Shown one piece after another: positions 2,367 to 3,951 of a stretch of DNA of 34,098 nucleotides. The notes beneath the pieces are model-generated. The model was not told the origin of the DNA and made no database searches. It saw only the letters and a program-made list of their open reading frames with translations. The position numbers were made by a program, and so were the translations under genes. Position 1 is the first letter of the stretch. Every line of letters starts with the position of its first letter. This DNA is from a virus (Duplodnaviria; Heunggongvirae; Uroviricota; Caudoviricetes): IMG/VR virus record IMGVR_UViG_2531839446_000020. The stretch is one strand, 5' to 3'.

Positions 2367-2637
2367 TTACTTCATCCCGCCAATATTTTCCCACGTCCCG
2401 TCAGCACGCAGAATTTGCAGCGGTCTTACCACGCACTGTATCTGCTTTTTATCCGCATCCAGTATCACCACCTGCGTGATTACCCTGGCCTGCTCCGGGA
2501 TAATACCATTCTCATCTGACTCCAGAATGTCTGCCGGCCCCAGTCGCAGTTGTGCTGTAAGCGACTGCCCGTGTTCACGGCCATCATGCTTTCCGCAACC
2601 ACACAGACGCTGCATAAGTTTTTTTAGTATGTTCATG
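2367..2637 (-). CDS. Small ORF (89 aa) whose C-terminal half resembles the tail-fibre tip domain of the upstream stf gene
   Basis: ATG at 2634-2636 lies immediately after the stf stop (TGACATGAAC). ...LRLGPADILESDENGIIPEQARVITQVVILDADKKQIQCVVRPLQILRADGTWEN parallels the stf C-terminus ...IRFRLGPASIIETNSNGWFPDTDGALITGLTFLDPKDATQVQGLFQHLQVRFGDGPWQ. Confidence 0.4.
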
Positions 2638-3951
2638 TCATTCTCCTGTTCTGCCTGTATCACTGCCCACTTCATCCAGCCCCTTAACATCCTGCCACGG
2701 CCCGTCACCAAATCTGACCTGCAAATGCTGAAACAGCCCCTGAACCTGTGTGGCATCTTTGGGGTCAAGAAAGGTCAGTCCGGTGATGAGTGCGCCATCT
2801 GTATCCGGGAACCAGCCATTGCTGTTTGTCTCAATAATGCTCGCCGGCCCCAGACGAAAACGGATTTGTGTCTCCCCCGGGTCGCCCTTCGGTCCCTGAG
2901 GTCCGGTTGCCCCCACCGGGCCAGCCGCACCTGTTTCTCCTTTCGGTCCCTGTGGGCCTGCCGGGCCTGCCGCACCGGTATCTCCCTTTGGACCCTGTGG
3001 ACCTGCATTTCCCGTCAGACCGGTCTCTCCCCGCTCTCCCCTGTCACCTTTCGGCCCCTGCGGGCCTGCCGGACCAGCATCACCTGCCGGTCCCCGTTCG
3101 CCGGTTGCCCCGACAGGGCCGGTGTCACCGCGCTCTCCCTTATCACCCTTCGGCCCCTGAGGACCCGCGGGCCCCTGTTCCCCCTTTGGCCCGGGAGGTC
3201 CCACCACGGTGGGGATTCGGTTTACGGCCTCTTCCGCCGCTATCCTGCTTTGTTCCGCTGACTGTGCGCTTTCTGCTGACTCCCGGGCTTTTTCTGTTGC
3301 GGTCGTTGCATCCCTGGCTGCATTACCGGCTGCACTTTCTGCCGTCTTTCTTGACAATTCAGCTTCTGCTGCACTTTGTGATGACTCACTGGCTTTTTGA
3401 GCGGCCGCAGAAGCCGAGGACGAGGACGCATCCTCTGACTGCTTTGCTGAGGCTGCACTTTCTGCCGCCTGCCGGGCTGACTCCGATGCCTCCCCTGCTG
3501 AAGTGTCAGCATTTGCAGCGCTCTCTTCTGCCTGACTGGCTGATATGCCGGCATTCCTCGCTGACGTCTCCGCCTCTCCGGCATTCTTCTTCGCCTCCTC
3601 AGCGTGACGCGCCACCTCTTCCACCATCTGTTCAAAACGGCGCAGTGCCTCCGGCCGGGCATCCTCCTCCGTCATGGCACCGAGAAAATCATTCAGCGTA
3701 CCCGGCTGAGAATCTTCATACACGGTGATGGTCCCGGCATGTGACGGCGGGAACCCTTCCACCAACAGAATAACGCTGTACTGACCGTACTCAACGTCCA
3801 TGCTGTAACGCCCGGCTTCATCCGGATTTTCTGAGGCCAGCGTGTTCACCACCACCGTGGTGCTGTTACGTTTTGCTTTCAGCTGGATTGTGCAGTTCTG
3901 TACCGGTTTTCCTGTGCCGTCTTTCAGTACACCTGAAATCTTTACTGCCAT
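2638..3951 (-). CDS. stf: Side tail fibre protein (Stf-like) with a collagen-like Gly-X-Y repeat region
   Basis: 437-aa ORF downstream of lom as in lambda. N-terminus MAVKISGVLKDGTGKPV... is lambda Stf-like, followed by an Ala/Ser/Glu-rich segment and about 35 GXY triplets (GPPGPKGEQGPAGPQGPKGDKGERGDTGP...). Confidence 0.8.
   Translation of the reverse strand: MAVKISGVLKDGTGKPVQNCTIQLKAKRNSTTVVVNTLASENPDEAGRYSMDVEYGQYSVILLVEGFPPSHAGTITVYEDSQPGTLNDFLGAMTEEDARPEALRRFEQMVEEVARHAEEAKKNAGEAETSARNAGISASQAEESAANADTSAGEASESARQAAESAASAKQSEDASSSSASAAAQKASESSQSAAEAELSRKTAESAAGNAARDATTATEKARESAESAQSAEQSRIAAEEAVNRIPTVVGPPGPKGEQGPAGPQGPKGDKGERGDTGPVGATGERGPAGDAGPAGPQGPKGDRGERGETGLTGNAGPQGPKGDTGAAGPAGPQGPKGETGAAGPVGATGPQGPKGDPGETQIRFRLGPASIIETNSNGWFPDTDGALITGLTFLDPKDATQVQGLFQHLQVRFGDGPWQDVKGLDEVGSDTGRTGE
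2878..3201 (-). repeat. Collagen-like (Gly-X-Y)n triplet-repeat coding region inside stf
   Basis: DNA shows periodic ggN-ccN-ggN structure; the translation is continuous GXY triplets over about 105 residues. Confidence 0.8.

Follow-up and report, generated by a model that had tools for sequence, protein, structure and literature searches.

Collagen-like side tail fibres of the kind described here belong to prophages bearing the genes for Shiga toxin and type III effectors in enterohaemorrhagic Escherichia coli (EHEC), enteropathogenic E. coli (EPEC) and related pathogens. The form called EPclA was shown experimentally, for ECs2717, to be a trimeric dumbbell (Ghosh 2012, PMC3368898). Its isolated C-terminal knob domain, PfC, is also a trimer and nucleates refolding of the collagen helix (PMC3368898), and a downstream gene consisting only of PfC is not discussed in that study. 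Such a gene is known from the Stx2 phage Sp5, in which ORF68 encodes a non-essential 89-aa polypeptide comprising the fibre C-terminus domain and was proposed to be an intragenomic "reservoir" sequence (Mondal 2016, PMC5155283). We analyzed the same arrangement in a lambdoid prophage (Caudoviricetes; IMG/VR record IMGVR_UViG_2531839446_000020), represented by a stretch of 34,098 nucleotides that we call the window. Its minus strand carries, in order, J (split), lom, the side tail fibre gene stf, a small gene for a free-standing PfC protein of 89 aa, and then type III effector genes (Table 1). We propose, with moderate confidence, that the product of the small gene is a genuine late protein, that it is expressed and that it acts with the PfC-tipped fibre as an accessory cap or extra head.

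The gene pair itself is already well catalogued. The small protein has orthologues in Sp5 (ORF68), 933W (L0122), phi24B (gp59) and VT1-Sakai (H0003), which are 92-99% identical to it, have the same length and likewise begin 1 nt after a PfC-tipped collagen-like fibre gene. The setting differs, as in Sp5 and Min27 the pair sits in the late region of a short-tailed phage, whereas here it closes the tail module of a lambda-like long-tailed prophage, with type III effector cargo adjoining. An earlier note, made from the sequence alone, had offered three readings of the small open reading frame (ORF): a spare receptor-binding cassette for host-range switching, a remnant of tip exchange, or a chaperone derived from the tip. 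Since Mondal 2016 had put forward the reservoir, the main one of these ideas is already in print, and what is new here is the evidence that the small protein is an expressed accessory of the fibre under constraint, and not a reservoir. Our search of the literature on the small PfC gene found nothing beyond Ghosh 2012, Mondal 2016 and a cryo-EM preprint on phi24B (bioRxiv 10.64898/2026.04.10.717836).

A free-standing copy of the fibre knob

The fibre tip and the small protein share 23 of 62 residues (37%, BLASTP E=3e-11), far beyond chance, which bears out both the tip paralogy and the common RLGPA..NG..P..IT..LD..Q..LQ..DG.W pattern that the earlier note had quoted. Both proteins match PF06820 over profile positions 1-64, with bit scores of 123.1 (fibre residues 363-426) and 117.8 (small protein) against a gathering score of 25. 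As DNA, the knob copies agree at ~50% of positions, and the longest identical run is 11 bp. PF06820 is the only Pfam family that the small protein matched at E<=0.01; Caudo_TAP (PF02413) gave no match and neither did a search of NCBIfam, so the small ORF is not a Tfa-like protein without tip homology. Searches for a PDB relative of PfC, with the single sequence or with a profile of the two paralogues, returned only matches with E above 1. Ahead of its full-length PF06820 domain, the small protein carries a Cys-containing N-terminus of 28 residues (MNILKKLMQRLCGCGKHDGREHGQSLT), which is indeed unrelated to the tip.

The start of the small gene had been described as overlapping the stf stop, and this proved not to be so: its ATG (2636-2634) lies 1 nt past the TGA of stf (2640-2638) and is preceded, at a 6-nt spacing, by its own GGAG (2646-2643). 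A longer ORF in the same frame, of 133 aa with a TTG start (2768..2367) and overlapping stf, was rejected as a mechanical upstream extension, the ATG with its own Shine-Dalgarno sequence being the real start. The 89-aa product has the length of its database family. A scan upstream of the small gene detected no promoter-like site. With a ribosome-binding site of its own and a start codon 1 nt beyond the end of stf, the gene would, we infer, be translated from the late transcript in a manner coupled to stf. Export was also considered, as a superinfection-exclusion lipoprotein of the T5 Llp or Cor type, which has a Sec/Lol signal peptide with a hydrophobic core and a lipobox cysteine; the N-terminus (MNILKKLMQRLCGCGK) has Lys, Arg and Gln throughout and no hydrophobic core as judged by eye, and this candidate was rejected.

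The small protein matches phrog_576 ("tail fiber protein") at E=6.5e-59 over profile positions 2-89 of 89, so that the N-terminal segment (MNILKK...CGCGK) is included in the family, and in the NCBI annotation pipeline PGAP it goes under the name "phage tail fiber C-terminal domain-containing protein". Its databank relatives are 93-100% identical. The gene occurs in 296 phage records at 92-100% identity and in 698 of 5,426 complete E. coli genomes at >=90% identity, with a median of 10 copies per positive genome. The family is nevertheless very narrow, being confined to E. coli, E. albertii and Citrobacter rodentium. An exhaustive HMMER search over 1.84 billion representatives gave ~60 matches, nearly all of them the same protein or fragments of it, and a word-index search with the fibre tip returned near-identical E. 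coli fragments only. When one genome was scanned for each species, the only finds were E. albertii, one weak myxobacterial match and a contaminant contig in a Xanthomonas assembly. The latter (L085, Xanthomonas pisi DSM 18956, contig 138, 725 bp) carries a small gene whose product is 93% identical to ours and is almost certainly E. coli phage contamination.

Selection on the small gene and its junction

We compared 83 copies of the small gene, taken from IMG/VR loci, VT1-Sakai and the window, and calculated the ratio of non-synonymous to synonymous polymorphism (pN/pS) by Nei-Gojobori comparison of unique alleles. The 89-codon frame was open in all 83 full-length matches. For the whole gene pN/pS was 0.15 (synonymous polymorphism, pS, 0.12), compared with 0.26 (pS 0.11) for the PfC domain of the fibre itself, so the free copy is under tighter protein-level constraint than a tip that is certainly used. 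Constraint was uneven along the gene, with values of 0.09 (pS 0.13) in its PfC domain and 0.34 (pS 0.09) in the N-terminal 27 codons. Amino-acid polymorphism in the N-terminus falls mostly at codons 19, 22-25 and 28, and only two positions of the PfC domain are polymorphic, 50 (A/D/G) and 81 (T/R/K/V). This layout of a conserved N-terminus (MNILKKLMQRLCGCGKHD), a variable linker and a conserved knob resembles that of a minimal fibre. The conserved part contains a helix at residues 3-11, predicted by a low-confidence AlphaFold2 model, followed by a CxC motif.

The start of the gene is conserved along with its product. The junction, stop-C-ATG with its Shine-Dalgarno sequence, is identical in about 78 of the 83 copies; the exceptions include two with IS66 insertions just upstream (L045, L072) and two in which a frameshift within the fibre knob fuses stf to the small gene (L054, L069). 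Nucleotide diversity reaches its minimum, 0.003, in the 30 nt before the ATG of the small gene, against 0.02-0.08 nearby, and synonymous diversity is 0.008 at stf codons 427-437 compared with 0.11 in the knob. At the other end of the gene, diversity among prophages is ~0.07 before the end and 0.23-0.69 directly after the stop. Because homology among prophages ceases right after the small gene, we regard it as the last member of the conserved tail module and not as variable cargo.

Among 77 copies of the stf tip plus small gene (L001-L081 and window positions 2367-2870) we counted 68 distinct joint haplotypes, and linkage disequilibrium over 100-500 bp was essentially nil (mean r2 0.03), a sign that lambdoid prophages residing together shuffle or gene-convert this region very intensely.

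An older duplication with a constant companion

A diverged orthologue, P0127 (locus L083), has 79 aa, is 61% identical to the small protein and lacks the linker, and it keeps the N-terminal motif M-x-I-[LF]-K-K-[LI]-x3-L-x-G-C-x-K. Its gene shares 14 nt with the end of a fibre gene whose product closes with a PfC tip and a short extension; the part of this fibre present in the locus contains no collagen, and its tip is 40% identical to that of stf. In the knob region, identity is 64% between the two small proteins, 40% between the two tips and 29-39% between small proteins and tips. We therefore conclude that the duplication is older than these lineages and that evolution is slower in the small protein than in the tips.

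In the short-tailed Traversvirus Min27, ORF64 and ORF65 are separated by a 1-nt gap as here and lie within the late gene cluster, and a PfC-tipped fibre gene is found directly upstream of the small gene in DCE7 and L083 as well. Across a lambda-like siphovirus, a podovirus and a fibre without collagen, what always accompanies the small gene is the PfC tip only. This makes the tip the most likely partner of the small protein, if that protein has a phage partner.

Two other proteins share parts of this architecture. P0148 (565 aa), a collagen-containing fibre-like protein, has four tandem PfC C-terminal halves located N-terminal to its collagen, and stacking of such modules is therefore plausible. 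P0153 (737 aa) has a repeated C-x-C-G-x-H-x-G-R that is like the CGCGKHDGR of the small protein (weak match, E about 1e-3).

Peptides in purified virions

Evidence for the protein comes from the phi24B orthologue. Two peptides of gp59, ADGTWENIGGMK and VITQVVILDADKK, are listed in the proteome of gradient-purified virions (supplement of bioRxiv 10.64898/2026.04.10.717836), and neither matches anything but gp59 or hypothetical gp61-gp59 fusions. The authors labelled the gp59 entry "Spike or just gp59?". In spectral counts the fusion entry exceeds gp61 in a single gel slice, EA1829, near the end of the series (25 vs 24). The portal, fibre and capsid proteins peak where one would expect if the slices go from high to low molecular weight; given that order, the count hints weakly at a gp59 that migrates as a small protein of its own. 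Thin as this evidence is, we take the small protein to be expressed and probably virion-associated. According to the same study, the tip of the collagen-like fibre is probably not the part that binds BamA (bioRxiv 10.64898/2026.04.10.717836).

A proposed fibre accessory and its alternatives

The selection on the small gene, its junction, its diverged orthologue and the virion peptides lead us to favour a working protein over a silent spare part, nor do we take it for an essential chaperone. Once translated together with stf, the small protein would trimerise through its PfC domain like the knob of the fibre, as suggested by the trimeric state of the isolated EPclA PfC (PMC3368898). It could then attach non-covalently to the distal PfC knob and extension of the fibre, either through its conserved N-terminal helix and CxC motif or through its own knob, and in that position it may serve as an accessory cap or a second head with an influence on binding or stability.

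Several observations weigh against this proposal. Neither the fibre nor its knob needs the small protein to trimerise (PMC3368898), and deletion of ORF68 in Sp5 had no reported defect on K-12 (PMC5155283). Only two gp59 peptides were reported, and the phi24B study classed several other detected phage proteins as contaminants (bioRxiv 10.64898/2026.04.10.717836). The structure prediction of the small ORF alone that the earlier note had suggested was run with AlphaFold2 on an 11-sequence alignment, and the monomer model was poor (mean pLDDT, the predicted local distance difference test, 53; predicted template modelling score, pTM, 0.26) and was judged unusable. Polymorphisms in the fibre tip and in the small gene are practically unlinked (mean r2 ~0.03), with non-synonymous pairs no higher than synonymous ones; there is therefore no sign of allele-specific co-adaptation, and contact between the two is neither supported nor excluded. 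Finally, part of the sequence conservation could stem from recent spread and gene conversion, with ~10 copies per genome and heavy shuffling.

A more specific version, which we offer only tentatively and would not expect to hold in full, is that the small protein represents a new type of accessory, in which a trimer of a knob paralogue docks knob-on-knob by means of its N-terminal helix and CxC motif and forms a detachable, conserved second head. If true, the head might serve, for example, a second ligand or the protection of the tip, and it would be an accessory distinct from both Tfa chaperones and gp38 adhesins and common to long-tailed lambdoid and short-tailed Stx phages. The gp38 adhesin is a hypervariable host-range determinant. 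Under the accessory reading, the gp38 adhesins of the T2, T6 and S16 type, which cap the long tail fibre protein gp37, would be the nearest likeness as small separate proteins on the distal end of a trimeric fibre, but there is no homology, and conservation here is higher in the small protein than in the fibre tip.

The alternative that survives best, though we think it rather unlikely, is an assembly helper, a functional analogue of lambda Tfa that would transiently aid trimerisation or register of the knob and collagen, the virion peptides then being carry-over. In lambdoid phages the position right behind the fibre gene is that of tfa; here the small gene fills it, with no gene of the Tfa family after this fibre, and translation appears coupled to stf. 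PfC nucleates collagen refolding (PMC3368898), so a soluble PfC paralogue could template it, and the small protein is more conserved than the tip. However, recombinant EPclA, Col-PfC and PfC alone are all trimeric without the small protein (PMC3368898), ORF68 of Sp5 can be deleted while the fibre gene ORF67 is essential (PMC5155283), and orthologue peptides are present in purified virions. The dispensability in Sp5 and the ability of the fibre to trimerise alone speak against an essential chaperone, so of the tip-derived chaperone proposed in the earlier note only the non-essential, accessory form stays viable. The resemblance to the assembly proteins of lambda (Tfa) and of Mu and P2 (PF02413) is thus limited to a small gene immediately downstream of a fibre gene, whose product is possibly retained on the tip; no sequence relationship exists, and the accessory here is itself a paralogue of the tip.

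We regard as improbable a soluble decoy, in which PfC trimers freed at lysis would bind a surface ligand on debris or neighbouring cells and so shield progeny fibres or block superinfection. A free, probably trimeric knob of the binding type, made late together with the fibre and non-essential in the laboratory, would suit this role, as would the two polymorphic positions of surface type (50 and 81) in an otherwise invariant domain. Yet the N-terminus is charged and amphipathic, with no signal peptide or usable lipobox, so that the protein could act only after lysis; at 37% identity to the fibre knob the ligand need not be shared, and the phi24B orthologue co-purifies with virions.

The idea of a spare receptor-binding cassette, a copy kept to swap the fibre tip and thereby the host range, has been proposed in print (PMC5155283), and we judge it slightly less probable still and, as the main function, largely refuted. 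Two paralogous tips do lie in tandem and in direct orientation, and the comparison of the junction across prophages that the earlier note had called for did uncover rare products of unequal crossover. In one of them (L082, 4-291; P0065) a deletion joins collagen straight to a small-type knob at a GPA microhomology, at a contig end where an assembly artefact is possible. In another (L088, 2697-3246; P0124, GCA_005381265.1) a tandem duplication has produced the order stf, small::tip chimera and small gene, the chimera combining the N-terminus of the small protein with the C-terminus of the fibre tip; the frameshifted fusions in L054 and L069 can be added to these. Recombination between the knob copies thus happens, as an accident rather than as a system. 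In a silent copy, purifying selection should not preserve an ATG, a Shine-Dalgarno sequence and an unrelated N-terminal peptide, nor would its orthologue be expected to leave peptides in virions. The invariant junction, the diverged orthologue and the 11-bp limit of DNA identity between the copies also disfavour it. No signatures of site-specific recombination or flanking inverted repeats were found, the only two weak inverted pairs being unrelated to the domain borders. The hundreds of database relatives include no full-length fibre that ends in a small-type knob, either in the word-indexed search or in HMMER over the 1.84 billion representatives.

The Gin/G system of Mu, the Cin/C system of P1 and the diversity-generating retroelements resemble this locus in that two alternative fibre C-termini are encoded side by side. 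Here the copies are in direct orientation with no bounding inverted sites and no adjacent invertase, the neighbours being lom and nleH, and at ~50% DNA identity they are far from the near-identical template and variable repeats, differing at adenines, of a retroelement.

A programmed frameshift near the end of stf, yielding a fibre with a second knob, seems very improbable to us. The frame of the small gene is open for 44 codons upstream of its ATG (hence the 133-aa ORF), natural frameshift mutants do yield such fusions, and the phi24B authors searched their mass spectrometry data with hypothetical gp61-gp59 fusions. However, 44 open codons are expected by chance in about 12% of cases by our estimate, several stops close the frame just upstream of the small gene in L083, the ATG and its Shine-Dalgarno sequence are conserved, and Mondal 2016 (PMC5155283) found no frameshift-inducing sequence. 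The excess of the fusion entry over gp61 in the late slice alone, probably one of low molecular weight, again hints weakly at a separate protein.

That the small gene is a decaying, functionless remnant of earlier tip exchange can be set aside almost entirely: such remnants do arise, as truncated third small-type knob copies 0.8-1 kb downstream in other prophages attest, but the open frame in every copy, the pN/pS of 0.15, the invariant junction, the presence in 698 genomes and an orthologue retained at 61% identity behind another fibre all disfavour it. The truncated third copies (L037, 5008-5148; L011, 4340-4408; also L012, L036, L039, L042, L044, L048, L055, L056 and L064) are 73-78% identical over 23-49 aa and border on effector cargo, NleG-like genes for instance; it seems that cargo is exchanged recurrently at the 3' end of the small gene.

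For annotation, our reading means that the small gene should be treated as a functional fibre-associated protein and not be merged with stf, called a pseudogene or taken for a spare cassette. As the protein is conserved, apparently virion-associated and encoded in ~10 copies per EHEC genome, it is a well-defined target for attachment studies.

The fibre gene and the surrounding locus

Table 1. Features of the stf region in the window (all on the minus strand)
Feature	Position	Strand	Basis or remark
Small gene, 89-aa free-standing PfC protein	2367..2636	-	phrog_576 full length; databank relatives; pN/pS
Conserved N-terminal motif, residues 1-18 (predicted helix 3-11, then CxC)	2583..2636	-	alignment
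Variable linker, residues 19-28	2553..2582	-	polymorphism; stretch missing from P0127
PfC domain of small protein, residues 29-89	2370..2552	-	PF06820, E=2.6e-34; pN/pS 0.09
stf, side tail fibre, 437 aa	2638..3951	-	ORF list; PF08400, PF01391, PF06820; phrog_366 tail fibre
PfN domain, residues 1-133, fibre-to-tail attachment	3553..3951	-	PF08400, E=1e-68
Ala/Ser/Glu-rich coiled-coil segment (PCoil), residues 134-250	3202..3552	-	sequence; internal direct repeats (family D2)
Collagen-like shaft, residues 251-361	2869..3201	-	regex count; PF01391; repeat family D1
PfC knob of fibre, residues 363-426	2674..2865	-	PF06820, E=6e-36, profile positions 1-64 of 64
11-residue C-terminal fibre extension (LDEVGSDTGRTGE)	2641..2673	-	sequence; also carries translation-initiation region of small gene
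Terminator-like hairpin and T-tract between lom and stf	3971..3986	-	terminator scan; upstream edge of stf/small-gene pair
14-bp stem-loop right 3' of small gene	2325..2355	-	RNA fold; end of conserved tail module
lom	4615-4016	-	PF06316
NleH-type kinase	2269-1379	-	type III effector gene 3' of small gene

The stf product has the architecture that Ghosh 2012 described for EPclA (PfN, PCoil, one Col and PfC in ~437 aa), in agreement with Table 2 of PMC3368898, where the PCoil segment was defined. With a PCoil of about 116 aa and a Col of 111 aa it corresponds to the commonest form of EPclA, and no difference was detected. From the same length and domain layout, the product would be a trimeric dumbbell with a collagen triple helix. 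The collagen nature of the shaft noted earlier was confirmed by PF01391, and the count of about 35 Gly-X-Y triplets was corrected to 37, in a single unbroken run. Residues 1-94 resemble PDB entry 9e7m ("Tail fiber protein", E=1e-52). Because a hairpin precedes stf and a stem-loop follows the small gene, the two genes form a bounded pair; the 66-nt segment spanning the latter (2310-2375) folds with -35.6 kcal/mol (z=-5.8).

Upstream of lom, the host-specificity gene J (4685-8179, minus strand) is split near 6970-6992 into ORFs of 395 aa and 761 aa. It aligns to intact J with 7 gaps, and VT1-Sakai is annotated with a similar truncation; this prophage may be unable to make functional tail tips.

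On the effector side, a 384-aa ORF (1-1155, minus strand) consists of Cif (PF16374) fused in frame to the C-terminal ~111 aa of CdtC (PF03498). Window positions 1-335 are 100% identical to the 3' end of cdtC, and between positions 336-2400 and cif-nleH of the prophage in E. coli DCE7 identity is 99.9%. We therefore conclude that cdtB, cdtA, a tfa remnant and the 5' part of cdtC were lost in a 3,026-bp deletion. tRNA genes were not detected. Two cspA-type cold-shock genes, each with an Rfam RF01766 thermoregulator leader (25380-25785 and 28812-29251, minus strand), are located in low-GC islands of the prophage (GC 0.36-0.39).

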